Of a stretch of DNA of 64,000 bases, positions 25,738 through 48,293 are shown in pieces. Origin of the DNA: Promethearchaeota archaeon. Lineage in GTDB: Archaea; Asgardarchaeota; Heimdallarchaeia; Hodarchaeales; Hodarchaeaceae. The stretch covers positions 192,001 to 256,000 of the forward strand of contig JBHLMN010000001.1 of assembly GCA_048938105.1 (NCBI GenBank). The letters run 5' to 3'. Position 1 is the first letter of the stretch. Each line of letters opens with the position of its first letter. The notes below the pieces were generated by a model, which had not been told where the DNA came from, did not search any database, and saw nothing but the letters and a program-made list of their open reading frames with translations. A program made the position numbers and the translations under genes.

Positions 25738-26277
25738 TCATCTATTTAAGAGTCCCGTTTCTTTGATATATGTCATTATCTTCGCAACACTCTCTTCAGG
25801 TGTTTCTTTATCTGTTTCAACAATTATTTCTGGGTTAGGAGGTTCTTCATATGGATGGCTAATTCCAGTGAAGTTTTCTATTTCACCAGCAATCGCTTTT
25901 TTATAAAGCCCCTTGATATCTCTTTCAATACAAACCTCGACTGGGCACTTCACAAACACTTCCATGAAATTGCTTGTCTCATCACGTGCTGCTTTTCTAG
26001 AAGCAATGTATGGAGAAATAAAAGAGACTAATGTCGCCACACCATTTCGACTAAGCAGTTTAGCTACAAAAGTGACCCGTTCAAGATTCGTTTTTCTATC
26101 TGCCTCTGTAAAACCTAGATCCTTTGTCAGGCTCTGGCGGACTATATCACCATCAAGAATTTCTACTTTTCTTTCTAGTTTCCTTAATTTCTCAGCAACT
26201 CTGGTGGCTAGTTCGCTTTTTCCAGAACCAGACAAGCCAGTAAACCACAGTACAAATCCATTATGTTCTTTTGTCAT
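25738..26277 (-). CDS. cysC: Adenylyl-sulfate kinase
   Basis: WFTGLSGSGKS, LDGD.VR, ISPY, RD.KGLY, FTGIS.PYE.P. Confidence 0.96.
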   Translation of the reverse strand: MTKEHNGFVLWFTGLSGSGKSELATRVAEKLRKLERKVEILDGDIVRQSLTKDLGFTEADRKTNLERVTFVAKLLSRNGVATLVSFISPYIASRKAARDETSNFMEVFVKCPVEVCIERDIKGLYKKAIAGEIENFTGISHPYEEPPNPEIIVETDKETPEESVAKIMTYIKETGLLNR

Positions 26278-27655
26278 TTATTATCACTTTACCTTCGAAA
26301 TCTTCAGGGACTTCTATATCAAACATTTTGAGTATAGTAGAAGCAATGTCTTCTATTTTCGCATCAACCTTACCTTTCCGAAGTTCTTCCTGAGGATCAT
26401 ATAAGATGTACATCCCATCCCAATCGTGCATTGCGTCATCAGAACCAAGATCATTTTCAAGGAGATATAAGGTATTATGACCAATTGTTCCTGCTGCTCG
26501 CCAATAAAGGTCATCAAATATTACCATCAAATCAGGATAGTCTCCCTTTGGATTCTCGTAATACTCTTCAGGATGAAAGACAATATTTTGCATTTTTTGG
26601 CCGTTAATATCCTTCAAATTGAGTAATTTTCTCTTAAGTTCTTCAAGTTCCTTTTTATAATCTTTTACACTGATAAGGCCTGTTTTCTCCCTTCCTTTAA
26701 GGTTTAAGTAAATTTTTGAGCAATACCCTCCCCAAGCCCATGCTTTAGTTTTTGTCCAGTCAATTTCTGCCTCTGATAATCGTGTTTGTTTATCAGGGGG
26801 GTTTTTCAAAACTAAATATTTTTCCTTGATCAACCATTCATTAATGCAAAAAGCTCCTTTCATGGCTTTAACACCATGATCAGAAACTACAAGAATATAG
26901 GTCCTTTCATCGATTAATTTAAGGATTTCACCAATATATTTGTCTATTGATTTATAATAATCACGAATAACATGTTGATATTTACTATTGGGTTCATGCA
27001 TATGATGTGTTTTGTCATAATAACGCCAAAACGCGTGATGAACACGATCTACGCCAATTTCTACAAAAGCAAAAAAATCCCATGGTTTCTCTTGAATTAA
27101 ATGCATAATCATATTCATGTGATTATCTAGCATCTCAAATAGTTGTTTGTAAATATTATCACGATCTCCAGACCGATAATCAATATCTGGAATGTATGAA
27201 CCACACTTTTTTTCTAGCTCTTGTTTTAATTCAGGAGGATACGTATAATTGCTTTTAGAACTGGGGGTCAAAAAACAGCTGACTGACCAACCATTCACTA
27301 CAGGAGGAGGATAACTTGGAGGAATTGCAAATAAACACGATTTTTGTCCTGTTTTAGCAAGTATGTCCCATATTTTGGGTTCTTGTATATTTTTTGAAGT
27401 AGCTATTCTAATTTCTTTGTATGAATACTTTTCTCGATAGCGAAAACCGTATAATCCTAGTTTTCCAGGTGTTTTTCCTGTAAACATGACCATCCATGCA
27501 GGTATAGTGATTGGAGGCATAGATGATCTCAAATTACCAGAAAGTCCATTATTTATCAATTTAGATATATTTGGAAGATCATTTCGAAATTCGTCAAAAA
27601 TTAATCTTGGAGAAGCACAATCAAGACCTATAACTAGCATTTTACGATTATTCAT
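26261..27655 (-). CDS. Alkaline phosphatase superfamily (nucleotide pyrophosphatase/phosphodiesterase-type) protein
   Basis: VIGLD, S.PP.T.PAW...TG (Thr nucleophile), DR.HH, VSDHG, DDA.H. Confidence 0.88.
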   Translation of the reverse strand: MNNRKMLVIGLDCASPRLIFDEFRNDLPNISKLINNGLSGNLRSSMPPITIPAWMVMFTGKTPGKLGLYGFRYREKYSYKEIRIATSKNIQEPKIWDILAKTGQKSCLFAIPPSYPPPVVNGWSVSCFLTPSSKSNYTYPPELKQELEKKCGSYIPDIDYRSGDRDNIYKQLFEMLDNHMNMIMHLIQEKPWDFFAFVEIGVDRVHHAFWRYYDKTHHMHEPNSKYQHVIRDYYKSIDKYIGEILKLIDERTYILVVSDHGVKAMKGAFCINEWLIKEKYLVLKNPPDKQTRLSEAEIDWTKTKAWAWGGYCSKIYLNLKGREKTGLISVKDYKKELEELKRKLLNLKDINGQKMQNIVFHPEEYYENPKGDYPDLMVIFDDLYWRAAGTIGHNTLYLLENDLGSDDAMHDWDGMYILYDPQEELRKGKVDAKIEDIASTILKMFDIEVPEDFEGKVIINDKRT

Positions 27656-27673
27656 TATTTTTCCGCCAATATT

Positions 27674-46185: not shown

Positions 46186-47182
46186 CTTTCGGGAATATCA
46201 GATTTTTTTGTTCATTCTTTAGTGTTTTAATGTTCCAGAAAAGAAAAACCAATCCAATACCGACTCCAAACCATAAAGTTGTGAATCGAATTAATAAGGT
46301 TAATGCTACTGATAAGGTGTACTCAATTTCTAATAAATCTATTACAAAGAATTCTAAACCCCCCTCCATTAATCCTAATCCTCCAGGTAGAAAGGATATC
46401 GCCCCTAGGATGGATGAAGTAGCATAGATAAATGTAGCCATTTGAAAACTCATAGAAATATTCAGGCTTTGAGCTATTAACATAAATGCTAAGCACTCAC
46501 ATGACCATCCAATAATACCTAAGATTGTTGCTACCAAAAAAGTCGTATAATGTAAAGTCATCAATACATCTGTTCGAAATTGATCAATATTCTTGCCAAT
46601 AAAATCCCAAGGACCAATGCGAAATATCACCGAAAAAACATGATAGAGGGGATCAAACAAAAAAACAACAACACTAAACATTACAACCAATAATATCACT
46701 AGGATGATTGGTAAATATGCTGATTCAAGCCCTAAGACCAAGATTCCAATTATTGATAATAATGTGACTGCTAATAAATCAATTAATCTTTCTGAAAATG
46801 TTGAAGCAAGCCCTTTAGAAAGCTCAATATTGTTACTTTTTCTTAAAAGGAACGCTCTTATCGCTTCACCAGCTTTCGCTGGAGTTATTGCCAAGGAAAG
46901 TCCTGCAAAAAACACTTTGAAGTTATACCAGAAAGGAATAGTCAGATTGAGGCTTCTGGTAAATAGATTCCACTTTAAAAATCGAAAAAGATAATTAACA
47001 AAACTCAATCCTAATGCAATTAGAATAATTGATATAGGTATAAAAGTCAAGTAATTCAACAACTGTTCCCAATTACTTACTAAAATTAGAATCAAATAAA
47101 CTAAAATGCCTAAAATTAGCCCGAAAGAAAAGTTTTTAAAGTTCAATGCTTTCCTTAACTGTATTTCATTCACTGACCTCAC
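46163..47182 (-). CDS. Lysylphosphatidylglycerol-synthase TM domain (UPF0104) flippase-like protein
   Basis: RF.KW, TPAKAGE..R, ER..D, PGGLG..E, R..TLW. Confidence 0.85.
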   Translation of the reverse strand: MRSVNEIQLRKALNFKNFSFGLILGILVYLILILVSNWEQLLNYLTFIPISIILIALGLSFVNYLFRFLKWNLFTRSLNLTIPFWYNFKVFFAGLSLAITPAKAGEAIRAFLLRKSNNIELSKGLASTFSERLIDLLAVTLLSIIGILVLGLESAYLPIILVILLVVMFSVVVFLFDPLYHVFSVIFRIGPWDFIGKNIDQFRTDVLMTLHYTTFLVATILGIIGWSCECLAFMLIAQSLNISMSFQMATFIYATSSILGAISFLPGGLGLMEGGLEFFVIDLLEIEYTLSVALTLLIRFTTLWFGVGIGLVFLFWNIKTLKNEQKNLIFPKGEDNNSH

Positions 47183-47231
47183 TAATTCCAGCTCACAGAC
47201 TTTTTTACCTAAAAGAGAAAGATTTCCGCAA

Positions 47232-48293
47232 TTAATAGACCAATAACTTGTTTAAACGTGGATGATGTGCGAGTTCTTCTATCACTTGTTTTACATTTCG
47301 GGCTTTATGTTTGTGACAAACGAATACACAATCATCGGTATCGATAACTACTAAATTTGAAATTCCTAACGCTATTACTGGTTTTTCTCCGAGAATCACA
47401 CATTTCTTCACATCTATTCCCAGAAAATCTCCTTGAATAATGTTTCCATCGGAATCTGATTCTAAGATGCAGTCTAAAGAATCCCATGTACCTATATCGT
47501 CCCATGGAAAATCTCCTCTCACAACTACTAAATCGGATGTTTTCTCCATAACACCATAATCAATAGAGACTTTTGGAAGGGATAGAAACACGTTGTACGC
47601 TTCCTTTTCATTAAATTCTGACTTCCGTATTTTTTCTAAGGCTTGATAAAGAGTCGGCATATATTCACGAATTTTTTCATATAGCACAGAAGGTTTAACA
47701 ATAAACATACCAGAATTCCATAAATACCCCTGTTTAATATATTCTTGGGCTTTAATTTCATCTGGTTTTTCCTTGAAGCTCTCAACGTTATAAACTGGAA
47801 TAGGAGTTTGAACAATCTCTTTTCCAGGACTGATGTATCCAAAACGAGTTTCATTACGACTTGGTTTTATTCCAATCGTTGAAATTTTTCCTTTTTTAGC
47901 TAATTGAACCGCGGTTTTTACAACTTCTTTGAAGTGGCTTATATCTGGTAAATGATAATCCGCTCCCATAAATAAAATTGCTTCATCTTTATTTTCGTGA
48001 AGAAATTGAGCGCAAACATAACCCATACCTGCTGCAGAATCACGACCCATTGGTTCTACTATCATTCTTACTTGTGGTAGTTGTTCTTGGATAATTGGTA
48101 AAAATTCTCTTCGTATAGACACTGATGTGTTCTTCTCTCCGGCAATTTGACAAGCAATCTTGAAAGTTCGTTGAATCAAAGATTCTTTTCCATCAAGAGA
48201 GATGAATTGTTTAGGTTTATTCTTACGTGATTTTGGCCATAACCGCTCTCCTCCTCCCCCAGCTAAAATTACTATATAAACCACTGGTTTCAC
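47232..48293 (-). CDS. manC: Mannose-1-phosphate guanylyltransferase
   Basis: ILAGG.G.RLWP.SR...PKQF, EP.GRD, FGYI, F.EKP, WNSGMF, SIDYGVMEK, W.D.G.W. Confidence 0.93.
   Translation of the reverse strand: MKPVVYIVILAGGGGERLWPKSRKNKPKQFISLDGKESLIQRTFKIACQIAGEKNTSVSIRREFLPIIQEQLPQVRMIVEPMGRDSAAGMGYVCAQFLHENKDEAILFMGADYHLPDISHFKEVVKTAVQLAKKGKISTIGIKPSRNETRFGYISPGKEIVQTPIPVYNVESFKEKPDEIKAQEYIKQGYLWNSGMFIVKPSVLYEKIREYMPTLYQALEKIRKSEFNEKEAYNVFLSLPKVSIDYGVMEKTSDLVVVRGDFPWDDIGTWDSLDCILESDSDGNIIQGDFLGIDVKKCVILGEKPVIALGISNLVVIDTDDCVFVCHKHKARNVKQVIEELAHHPRLNKLLVY

Follow-up and report, generated by a model that had tools for sequence, protein, structure and literature searches.

The animal enzyme NDST, which acts on the heparosan polymer, is a Golgi-lumenal type II membrane protein in which a deacetylase with a CE4-like barrel is fused to a PAPS sulfotransferase. 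The enzymes of the CE4 subgroup that contains ArnD, HP0310, PuuE, and WbmS are cytoplasmic, either soluble or peripheral to the membrane. The substrate of ArnD is a polyprenyl-phosphate-linked amino sugar, WbmS belongs to an O-antigen locus for diacetamido-uronic acids, and we know of no sulfotransferase partner for any of the four. In bacteria, the GAG-like exopolymers of Pontiella (Kiritimatiellia) are chemically indicated to be N-sulfated (PMC7356697). In the archaeon Halobacterium salinarum, sulfation and epimerization of the N-glycan involve Agl30, Agl31, and Agl32 (PMC11980604, PMC12624080). Agl30 and Agl31 O-sulfate GlcA and IdoA; they belong to the alkaline-phosphatase/sulfatase superfamily rather than the PAPS-sulfotransferase fold, and no deacetylase is involved.

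The window analyzed here, a DNA stretch of 64,000 nucleotides, is best explained as belonging to a surface-glycan island, mosaic and species-specific, in a Heimdall-type Asgard archaeon. As in NDST, a protein with a CE4-like barrel (CE4a) is paired with a PAPS-type sulfotransferase (ST1) in what appears to be glycan tailoring. However, the two are separate genes whose products are predicted to be soluble and cytoplasmic and probably act on HexNAc(A) linked to a lipid or a nucleotide. As in H. salinarum, the proposed product is an archaeal, uronic-acid-rich surface glycan that would be sulfated on a lipid-linked intermediate before flipping. Pontiella makes a prokaryotic sulfated hexosamine polymer, and the distant relatives of ST1 are mostly from Verrucomicrobiota, but its organisms and gene clusters differ from this island.

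Results

The features of the locus are listed in Table 1. The minus-strand run 48293-36108, from ManC to WecB, has the gene content claimed for it in the first-pass annotation, as judged by Pfam and NCBIfam matches and by AF2 folds for ST1 and CE4a. ST1, CE4a, and the PIG-L protein, all three soluble, are encoded with spacings of 95 and 247 nt, and the start of the FkbH gene overlaps the stop of the gene upstream by 13 nt. Alternative fates for a free amine would be offered by FkbH and by further tailoring genes of this run.

Table 1. Features of the glycan island, with positions in the window
Feature	Position	Strand	Evidence
ManC-like sugar-1-phosphate nucleotidyltransferase	47232-48293	-	PF00483 (NTP_transferase) + PF22640 (ManC beta-helix)
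MprF-type flippase-like membrane protein (LPG_synthase_TM)	46163-47182	-	PF03706, E 2.3e-44
GT2 glycosyltransferase	45322-46185	-	PF00535; 23-nt overlap with next gene
Membrane-anchored protein, 3 TM segments, possible CE4-like C-terminal domain (tentative)	44284-45222	-	hydropathy, motifs
FkbH/HAD-IIIC protein	42449-44296	-	TIGR01686, 249 bits
GT2 glycosyltransferase	41497-42396	-	PF00535, E 2.8e-20
ST1, PAPS-type sulfotransferase, cytoplasmic (predicted), 297 aa, no TM segment	40467-41360	-	PF00685, E 1.9e-5
CE4a, cytoplasmic (predicted) CE4/NodB-fold deacetylase-like protein, 239 aa	39652-40371	-	AF2 model, fold matches
PIG-L/LmbE-family de-N-acetylase	38778-39404	-	PF02585, E 2e-17, full profile covered
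GT4 glycosyltransferase	37560-38693	-	PF00534 + PF13439
WecB, non-hydrolyzing UDP-GlcNAc 2-epimerase	36108-37430	-	TIGR00236, 337.5 bits (cut-off 210)
12-TM membrane protein, candidate Wzx-like flippase	34529-35971	+	hydropathy; no Pfam family
ST3, second PAPS-type sulfotransferase	33296-34312	+	PF13469, E 2.8e-23; PF00685, E 8.9e-11
Nucleotidyltransferase-aminotransferase fusion	31420-33252	+	PF00483 + PF00155
TagF-like CDP-glycerol glycerophosphotransferase	29689-30942	-	PF04464, E 2.8e-49
Sat, ATP sulfurylase	27674-28819	-	PF01747, E 2.6e-87, + PF14306
Alkaline-phosphatase-superfamily enzyme, between sat and cysC	26261-27655	-	PF01663, E 2.6e-48; PF00884 weak
CysC, APS kinase	25738-26277	-	PF01583, E 1e-59
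UDP-ManNAc-dehydrogenase-like nucleotide-sugar dehydrogenase	24341-25711	+	TIGR03026, 354 bits

The sat/cysC cassette and second sulfotransferase that had been noted nearby are confirmed by Pfam matches for Sat, CysC, and ST3. The nearby flippase is present as a membrane protein, with its Wzx-like identity still that of a candidate. The alkaline-phosphatase-superfamily gene had not been mentioned. CysC is the sole APS-kinase match found across this genome (G000), and such matches occur in just 4 of 20 congeners. Three UDP-sugar dehydrogenases had been counted as part of the locus; they exist, but all lie outside 25738-48293, one at 24341-25711 (NF040825 at 315 bits, under the equivalog cut-off) and the others at 2083-3429 and 3-902, the latter truncated by the window edge. 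The glycan had also been called glycosaminoglycan-like. A search of this genome for C5-epim_C, and hence for a glucuronyl C5-epimerase, gave no match, and the Pfam families matched in the window included none recognized as a GAG-type polymerase or synthase. The term is therefore a loose analogy only.

Although the Pfam match of ST1 is weak, its AF2 model (pLDDT 91.4) adopts the sulfotransferase fold. Its structural matches by VIA are TPST (Z 15.6), the CurM sulfotransferase (13.4), and 3-OST and the NST domain of NDST1 (both ∼12). The 5'-PSB loop TSTTGRSGT is kept across the family alignment (A1), in which R149 and S157, candidate 3'-PB residues, and E122 and H125 are invariant. ST1 was not found in 39 searched relatives, including 20 congeners, and this distribution indicates that the island is species-specific.

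CE4a has no Pfam match at gathering score; its AF2 model (pLDDT 91.8) folds as a CE4/NodB barrel. Translation probably begins at the GTG at 40371, which is preceded by GGAG in a reading frame that is open to 40434. Structural matches by Foldseek and VIA include HP0310 (Z 17.2), PA1517, PuuE, ArnD (15.2), and WbmS (14.8). Thus, the ArnD/HP0310/PuuE/WbmS subgroup provides the best matches (Z 14.8-17.2), but at a sequence identity of just 14-17%. A DxD-type first motif is common to this subgroup and the CE4a family (A2), in which R27, D29, D31, H109, K139, H140, H228, and P229 are invariant. The canonical HxxxH motif is missing, and the histidine pair of the second motif is replaced by a single histidine and a distant invariant one. 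Because CE4a lacks HxxxH and resembles a subgroup that includes non-deacetylases, it is a candidate deacetylase only. Alignment of A2 with the DUF7033-CE4 family (A3) by hhalign, at 94.5% probability and E 7.4e-8, brings the DVDN, LH, and xH motifs into register and places the two as sister families; the DxD-type motif was seen directly for A3 aligned to 3rxz.

The first-pass annotation had proposed that the two proteins perform the coupled chemistry of NDST, and a functional pair is very probable. However, the comparison with NDST1 revealed no specific sequence or structural affinity. Matches exist at the level of fold (ST1 versus the NST domain, Z 11-12; CE4a versus 9f6z, Foldseek E 5.7e-5, rank 33), but they are outscored by other sulfotransferases and by other CE4 enzymes, and there is no HSNSD Pfam match. 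The protein at 44284-45222, which had been called a membrane deacetylase, does have three TM segments at its N-terminus by hydropathy. Its motifs (RHDVD, GFHYE, and IHPDWW), weak hhalign profile matches, and ESM Atlas structural neighbors that include a "putative polysaccharide deacetylase" (TM 0.6-0.76) only hint at deacetylase identity.

The proximity of ST1 to CE4-like genes recurs in other archaea. In L002 and L035, the gene directly upstream of the ST1 orthologue (49-53% identity) is DUF7033/CE4-like, whereas in L038 a full copy lies 2.5 kb upstream of ST1 and a fragment adjoins it; these loci and L037 may not represent independent lineages. In P0101, a metagenomic protein of 742 aa known as a called protein only, both families are fused in one open frame that occurs on two contigs; the domain order is that of NDST, with the deacetylase-like domain at the N-terminus and the sulfotransferase at the C-terminus. 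The DUF7033-CE4 part shares 46% identity with the L002 protein (across 99% of that query), and residues 453-742 match the ST1 of the window at 57% identity. Further pairs of ST1 and CE4-like homologues are matched circumstantially, by equal size and source of their contigs (21184 bp, CE4a type; 10240, 8270, 10055, and 3323 bp). Among such matches, the closest ST1 homologue, P0004 (71%), is paired with a 65% CE4a homologue. No CE4-like gene occurs within the DNA available for the ST1 orthologue loci L003 and L004, and the distant bacterial ST1-like loci that were fetched have none of the A2 or A3 type as a neighbor. In a tree of ST1 sequences, the window and P0004, whose partners are of the CE4a type, form a clade nested among lineages with DUF7033 partners; the CE4 partner switched subfamily while adjacency to ST1 persisted.

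At all annotated ST1-family loci examined, the surrounding genes are those of polysaccharide synthesis (Wzx, GT2/GT4, MBOAT, and nucleotide-sugar dehydrogenases). A UDP-HexNAc-dehydrogenase-like gene is present along with ST1 in L002, L035, and L038, and L002 carries a 58% identical copy of the dehydrogenase at 24341-25711. A glucuronyl-C5-epimerase-like gene, present in L002, L035, and L037, parallels that of H. salinarum, in contrast to the genome studied here.

A congener, G009, has the gene order ATP-grasp, CE4a (67%), PIG-L (83%), and UDP-ManNAc dehydrogenase (81%), and the PIG-L gene of the window is syntenic with its CE4a-neighboring counterpart. Therefore, an amide-forming ligase occupies the position of ST1 beside CE4a and PIG-L. 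Searches of G009 found no ST1 and no APS kinase, and this exchange supports functional coupling. G009 also encodes P0051, labeled Candidatus Heimdallarchaeota at NCBI, which supports the probable Asgard origin named in the first-pass annotation.

Discussion

Our analysis allows a pathway to be proposed, in which the plausible product of the island is a glycan that contains uronic acid and is sulfated and partly de-N-acetylated. WecB and the UDP-ManNAc-dehydrogenase-like enzyme would supply an N-acetyl-hexosaminuronic acid, ManC a GDP-sugar, and Sat and CysC the PAPS. Glycan assembly by the GT2 and GT4 enzymes would take place on a lipid carrier facing the cytoplasm, and the Wzx-like and MprF-like membrane proteins would flip the finished product. 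ST1 and CE4a would act as a functional module that probably includes PIG-L. A HexNAc(A) linked to a nucleotide or a lipid would lose an N-acyl group to the soluble CE4-fold enzyme and would then itself be sulfated by ST1, with PAPS as donor. The freed amine would be the simplest acceptor, making the pair a split, independently evolved NDST analogue. Action of ST1 and the CE4-like enzyme on the same sugar is likely. The full proposal of a split NDST analogue falls just short of an even chance in our estimate, and an N-sulfate product is put at that level or a shade lower, given computations that do not separate N- from O-sulfotransferases.

The pair could also be coupled with the sulfate placed on oxygen, a substantial though minority possibility. 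ST1 would then O-sulfate the same or a neighboring residue, like Nod-factor NodH or the enzymes behind the O-sulfated uronic acids of Halobacterium (IdoA O-3 and GlcA O-2), and the free amine would be a charge or recognition element or be re-acylated, by the FkbH product or, in relatives, by ATP-grasp enzymes. The translational coupling of FkbH with the membrane CE4-like gene and the joint occurrence of ATP-grasp and CE4-like genes in G009, L038, and L005 are as this explanation would expect. The fold of ST1 is nearest O-sulfating enzymes (TPST, CurM ST, and 3-OST). To our knowledge, all characterized prokaryotic glycan sulfotransferases are O-sulfotransferases (see also PMC11625862), which likewise favors oxygen. 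However, an ATP-grasp ligase at the position of ST1, in a congener without PAPS synthesis, is consistent with the two enzymes competing for a single nucleophile. In addition, O-sulfation does not need deprotection; therefore, fusion to a deacetylase and kept adjacency are less expected than under N-sulfation.

It is improbable that the enzymes are not directly coupled here, with CE4a, PIG-L, and the UDP-ManNAc-dehydrogenase-like enzyme forming an older module for a de-N-acetylated or re-acylated aminouronic acid and with ST1, ST3, and the PAPS cassette as later insertions into the mosaic island that sulfate other residues. The synteny without ST1 in G009, the failure to find ST1 in the 39 searched relatives, the presence of CE4a with no sulfotransferase detected in L092 and L093, and the spacing of 84-247 nt between genes of the run, with no sign of tight translational coupling, are consistent with such a history. 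Linkage of the ST1 family to CE4-like genes in other lineages, the fusion, and the pairing of P0004 argue against it. Very improbable is a non-glycan target (protein tyrosine, a lipid, or a small metabolite) with the glycan genes as mere neighbors. In structure, ST1 does match tyrosylprotein sulfotransferases best, but the annotated loci examined for its family are all among polysaccharide genes and its sole fusion partner has a carbohydrate-esterase fold.

Returning to the proposed split NDST analogue, the same two enzyme types are neighbors again in other archaea, and once they are fused, as they are in the animal enzyme that initiates the modification of heparan sulfate.

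Organization of the Glycan Island

ORF listing and Pfam/NCBIfam scans show that the window, which is archaeal, contains a large island of genes for glycan biosynthesis. The GC content of the window is ~33%, and its archaeal markers include the large and small primase subunits, CofD, and CofH/CofG-like radical SAM genes. The scans bear out the gene inventory of the first-pass annotation, with two of the UDP-sugar dehydrogenases lying far outside the interval that it had assigned to the locus (25738-48293). Within the long minus-strand run, intergenic gaps are 49-247 nt, and two gene pairs overlap, FkbH/P0003 and GT2/LPG_synthase_TM. 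The sulfotransferase ST1 and the deacetylase-like protein CE4a are encoded here by two genes, 95 nt apart, rather than as the single polypeptide of NDST, the animal N-deacetylase/N-sulfotransferase of heparan sulfate. AglB of this genome is encoded on another contig.

Features of the island and of related loci on other contigs
Sequence	Coordinates	Strand	Feature
Window	3-902		UDP-sugar dehydrogenase
Window	971-1810	+	Ribbon-helix-helix (CopG) domain fused to sugar-phosphate nucleotidyltransferase
Window	2083-3429		UDP-sugar dehydrogenase
Window	5947-7722		Polytopic membrane protein
Window	8946-10106		Polytopic membrane protein
Window	10240-17179		Second block, including four GT4 genes
Window	11584-13287		NodU/CmcH-type carbamoyltransferase
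Window	21842-23005	+	S-adenosylmethionine synthetase
Window	26261-27655	-	Alkaline-phosphatase-superfamily gene
Window	33296-34312	+	ST3, strong Sulfotransfer_3 protein
Window			Also upstream of the run, at lower coordinates: 12-TM protein (the polytopic protein at 34529-35971); nucleotidyltransferase-aminotransferase fusion; TagF-like transferase; sat; cysC; UDP-ManNAc-dehydrogenase-like gene
Window	34529-35971		Polytopic membrane protein
Window	48293-36108	-	Run, first part: ManC-like nucleotidyltransferase, LPG_synthase_TM (MprF flippase-type), GT2, P0003, FkbH/HAD-IIIC, GT2; continued: ST1, CE4a, PIG-L, GT4, WecB
Window	38778-39404	-	PIG-L
Window	39652-40371	-	CE4a, read from GTG 40371 within a 260-aa ORF (no Pfam family)
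Window	40467-41360	-	ST1 (297 aa)
Window	42449-45222	-	FkbH and P0003
Window	44284-45222	-	P0003
Window	55575-56888	-	IS605 OrfB/TnpB-like gene
L002	10847-12046		C5-epimerase-like gene
L035	10886-12130		C5-epimerase-like gene
L037	836-2071		C5-epimerase-like gene
L038	4426-5624		Truncated ST1 between two CE4-like fragments
L091 (G009:C1:197500-217400)	8892-11608		Region of the ATP-grasp ligase gene directly upstream of CE4a and PIG-L

PIG-L matches PF02585 with 64.3 bits (cut-off, 28.2 bits) over profile positions 1-128 of 129 and falls below the BshB1 and BshB2 equivalog cut-offs in the NCBIfam scan. P0003 has 312 aa, three TM segments, and no Pfam family. Its first-pass label of membrane deacetylase draws on motif-level resemblance and ESM-Atlas structural neighbors only, and profile comparison is weak (hhalign probability of 23% versus the CE4a family alignment and 2.5% versus the alignment of its sister family, DUF7033-CE4); we keep the label as tentative and do not accept it as established. 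The start of FkbH overlaps the stop of this membrane-anchored CE4-like gene by 13 nt, and no carrier-protein gene for FkbH is seen in the window. One possible reading of the overlap is a deacetylate-then-glyceroylate (acyl swap) step.

The alkaline-phosphatase-superfamily gene lies between sat and cysC, overlaps cysC by 17 nt, and matches PF01663 and, weakly, a sulfatase family. Its product could handle PAP or PPi, or could transfer sulfate as a second type of enzyme besides the sulfotransferases; its superfamily, the only level of this comparison, also includes Agl30 and Agl31, the glycan sulfotransferases defined experimentally in Halobacterium (PMC11980604). The carbamoyltransferase of the second block suggests a carbamoylated glycan, and the three polytopic proteins near this block, all lacking a Pfam family, are possible polymerases or flippases. 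With its three domains (PF00438, PF02772, PF02773), the S-adenosylmethionine synthetase belongs to the type of bacteria and eukaryotes rather than that of archaea, and it adjoins a split MetE. The TnpB-like gene (OrfB_IS605 plus a Cas12f-like TNB domain) lies ~7 kb off the island.

Sequence and Predicted Structure of ST1 and CE4a

ST1 is a marginal match to PF00685 (24.6 bits versus a 22-bit cut-off). Across its family (23 sequences, 41-69% identity), the phosphosulfate loop TSTTGRSGT is near-invariant, with G12 and R13 present in at least 90% of sequences. The candidate 3'-PB residues R149 and S157 are invariant in 23/23, as are E122 and H125. The AF2 model is confident (pLDDT 91.4), and the 5' loop, the 3'-phosphate Arg/Ser, and the fold are those of a PAPS-dependent sulfotransferase; structural matches at Z >10 are mostly sulfotransferases. 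VIA-align places tyrosylprotein sulfotransferases (TPST) first (Z 15.6), followed by the sulfotransferase domain of CurM (13.4) and, at ~12, by the heparan 3-O-sulfotransferases and the NST domain of NDST1. This model-based ranking carries no indication of N- versus O-specificity; structural neighbors do not show function.

Homologues of CE4a are 239 aa long and start at the position of GTG 40371, which is preceded by GGAG. R27, D29, D31, H109, K139, H140, and H228 are invariant in the family (34 sequences). The alignment, rather than model geometry, shows that D29, D31, H109, H140, and H228 are retained throughout but that the family lacks the canonical H(S/T)xxH motif. A search of Pfam-A by hmmscan at E values up to 1 returned only a weak match to PF01522 (E 0.063), and the HSNSD family was not found. 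The predicted structure (AF2, pLDDT 91.8) is a CE4/NodB barrel, with a Foldseek E value of 1e-7 to CE4-type structures; VIA aligns 170-214 of its residues with many CE4 enzymes at Z 12-17. HP0310 ranks highest (Z 17.2), and PA1517, PuuE, ArnD (15.2), and WbmS (14.8) are also among the best matches.

PDB-sequence searches with the single sequences of ST1 and CE4a found nothing useful. Because neither protein has a TM segment, both should act in the cytoplasm, the site of PAPS synthesis. A complex prediction for the pair scored 0.00 and was counted neither for nor against binding.

Comparison with NDST and Other Systems

The first-pass annotation had drawn an analogy with NDST. A shared fold is clear for ST1, although its scores against the NST domain (1nst, 8ccy; Z 11.5-12.1) lie below those for TPST and CurM. 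For CE4a, NDST1 (9f6z) appears only at Foldseek rank 33 and falls outside the 50 best VIA rows, and the protein does not classify as an HSNSD-type N-deacetylase. No specific homology to NDST was found, and neither ST1 nor CE4a qualifies as an NDST-family member; at most, and by analogy, the two would work like a split NDST. The description of the glycan as "glycosaminoglycan-like" is a loose label only: no glucuronyl C5-epimerase was found in the genome and no GAG polymerase was identified. Neither PF06662 nor the epimerase-like protein of L002, an ST1 locus on another contig, has a match in this genome (99% complete), and the glycosyltransferase domains identified in the window are generic GT2 and GT4 domains.

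Halobacterium salinarum makes sulfated GlcA/IdoA N-glycans and has a C5-epimerase, Agl32 (PMC11980604, PMC12624080). Its sulfotransferases Agl30 and Agl31, which act on oxygen, belong to the alkaline-phosphatase/sulfatase superfamily (PMC11980604), whereas ST1 and ST3 have the PAPS-sulfotransferase fold and are thus not of the Agl type. According to reviews and engineering papers, no prokaryote is known to have an NDST equivalent of its own. N-sulfated GAG-like exopolymers are indicated chemically in Pontiella, without assigned enzymes (PMC7356697). Literature searches on DUF7033, and on sulfotransferases in connection with Asgard archaea, returned nothing relevant.

Linkage of the ST1 and CE4-like Families

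Among the ~27 close homologues of ST1, most are metagenomic proteins without a name, and one is labeled Hermodarchaeota. At L002 and L035, the gene order is DUF7033/CE4-like, ST1, glucuronyl-C5-epimerase-like, FkbM methyltransferase, and hexapeptide acyltransferase, with a Wzx flippase and a UDP-HexNAc-dehydrogenase-like gene near ST1; the downstream genes at L037 are the same. The epimerase-like gene (PF06662 C-terminal domain) directly follows ST1 at all three loci (E 7.7e-9 at L002, weaker at the other two). At L002 and L035 the order of deacetylase-like, sulfotransferase, and epimerase-like genes is as in heparan sulfate modification. At L038, ST1 is truncated (228 aa) and lies between two short CE4-like fragments; an ATP-grasp gene is present, and a full CE4-like gene is located 2.5 kb upstream. 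The locus gives the impression of a CE4-ST1 module in decay or rearrangement. The adjacency, whose conservation the first-pass annotation had made a test of its proposal, recurs at L002, L035, and in one fusion; no CE4-like gene was found in the 4.8 and 7.6 kb available at L003 (Wzx/GT/ST1) and L004 (Wzx/ST1/MBOAT). The comparison is drawn across ST1 loci on other contigs, since ST1 was not found in 39 relatives, 20 of them congeners.

No member of the CE4a-family HMM was found in any other ST1 locus searched; the link at those loci appeared only through the DUF7033-CE4 sister family. The two families are homologous (hhalign probability 94.5%, E 7.4e-8), with aligned HDVDN, LH, and xH motifs, and the sister family matches the solved polysaccharide deacetylase 3rxz (E 4.8e-5). 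Further pairs of ST1 and CE4 homologues share contig size and source (21184 bp, with ST1 at 71% and CE4a at 65%; 10240, 8270, 10055, and 3323 bp). The co-location of P0004/P0052, P0005/P0099, P0007/P0102, and P0018/P0108, taken from identical contig size and source only, is circumstantial. In the maximum-likelihood tree of ST1, the window's protein groups with P0004, its closest homologue (support 94/73); both have a CE4a-type partner, and their clade lies within lineages whose partners are of the DUF7033 type. The CE4 partner switched subfamily while its adjacency to ST1 persisted. The fetched ST1 loci may be phylogenetically clustered.

Distant relatives of ST1 (L005-L033, 22-29% identity) are overwhelmingly from Verrucomicrobiota, a phylum with reported N-sulfated exopolymers (Pontiella). 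Neither type of CE4 neighbor was found in the distant ST1-like loci fetched. A second sulfotransferase lies nearby in L005 and L039.

A natural fusion, P0101, is known as a called protein of 742 aa on two contigs of a JGI metagenome. Its N-terminal part matches DUF7033 and, weakly, Polysacc_deac_1, with the DUF7033-CE4 match extending to about residue 440. An ST1 orthologue with 57% identity to that of the window makes up residues 453-742, and the junction runs directly into the usual ST1 N-terminus. The corresponding genes of L002 are parted by a stop codon and 21 nt. Only P0101 carries both domains on one chain with the deacetylase-like domain N-terminal, which is the NDST domain order; no second fusion was found among the best 150 of 8288 matches to P0101 in 1.84 billion representatives, the number of matches reflecting a very large CE4-like family. 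Another metagenomic protein, P0309 (732 aa), is a DUF7033/CE4-like member fused to a GT2 domain, and its architecture is further evidence that the CE4-like family acts on nascent glycans.

The PAPS Cassette Is an Accessory Addition

PAPS cassettes in glycan islands are not new. CE4a was found in 7/300 genomes of the phylum. One of the same genus, G009 (4.94-Mb contig; NCBI label, Candidatus Heimdallarchaeota), has the order ATP-grasp, CE4a (67%), PIG-L (83%), and UDP-ManNAc-dehydrogenase-like (81%); searches of G009 found no ST1 and no APS kinase. APS kinase was found in only 4/20 congeners, and the genome of the window has cysC as the sole copy found. From this we conclude that the PAPS cassette and the sulfotransferases were added as accessory genes, and that the module of CE4a, PIG-L, and the dehydrogenase is older. 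This patchiness, the sole cysC, and its setting among two sulfotransferases led us to reject the view that these are ordinary assimilatory sulfate genes beside a glycan cluster. At the CE4a locus of G009, L091, a gene for an amide-forming (ATP-grasp) ligase occupies the exact position of ST1, with CE4a and PIG-L directly downstream. L038 and L005 likewise have ATP-grasp genes in the company of CE4-like or ST1-like ones.

Proposed Function of the Pair

ST1 and its CE4-like partner likely form a functional deacetylase-sulfotransferase module, because their adjacency recurs with two sister CE4 subfamilies, because one relative is a CE4-ST1 fusion, and because a congener apparently unable to make PAPS has a ligase in ST1's place. 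An N-acetyl-hexosaminuronic acid, or a precursor of it, is the probable target sugar, given that WecB and a WecC-like dehydrogenase are present and that homologues of this dehydrogenase occur alongside ST1 or CE4a in L002, L035, L038, L091, and L092.

The simplest chemistry would be to remove the N-acetyl group and then to transfer sulfate to the amine so exposed, since O-sulfation needs no deprotection. We regard N-sulfation by the module as approaching, without reaching, an even chance. The two enzymes could also be coupled with the sulfate placed on oxygen, a realistic possibility that we put somewhat lower, at clearly less than an even chance. Returning to N-sulfation, we tentatively propose, while holding the full statement somewhat doubtful, that ST1 and its CE4-like partner may be the first glycan N-deacetylase/N-sulfotransferase system of archaea and, among prokaryotes at large, the first to be defined genetically, split here and naturally fused in a relative, of NDST-independent origin, and producing an N-sulfo-amino(uronic) sugar on a lipid-linked intermediate.

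Significance

Archaeal glycans with sulfate are no novelty, since Halobacterium makes them with sulfating enzymes of the alkaline-phosphatase type. What is new is a defined soluble pair, a PAPS sulfotransferase family and a CE4-like family co-travelling in archaea, in which the partner subfamily was swapped, the adjacency was kept, and one fusion has the NDST order. The finding bears little on the origin of eukaryotes, as the comparison with NDST revealed no specific homology. In microbial heparin production, the lack of prokaryote-expressible N-deacetylase/N-sulfotransferase has repeatedly been called the bottleneck (PMC13353177, PMC11069525), and the pair, if it N-sulfates, could give naturally prokaryote-expressible parts for both activities. 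N-sulfation would also identify enzymes behind the prokaryotic N-sulfated polymers indicated chemically (PMC7356697) and would represent convergent evolution with a key animal enzyme.
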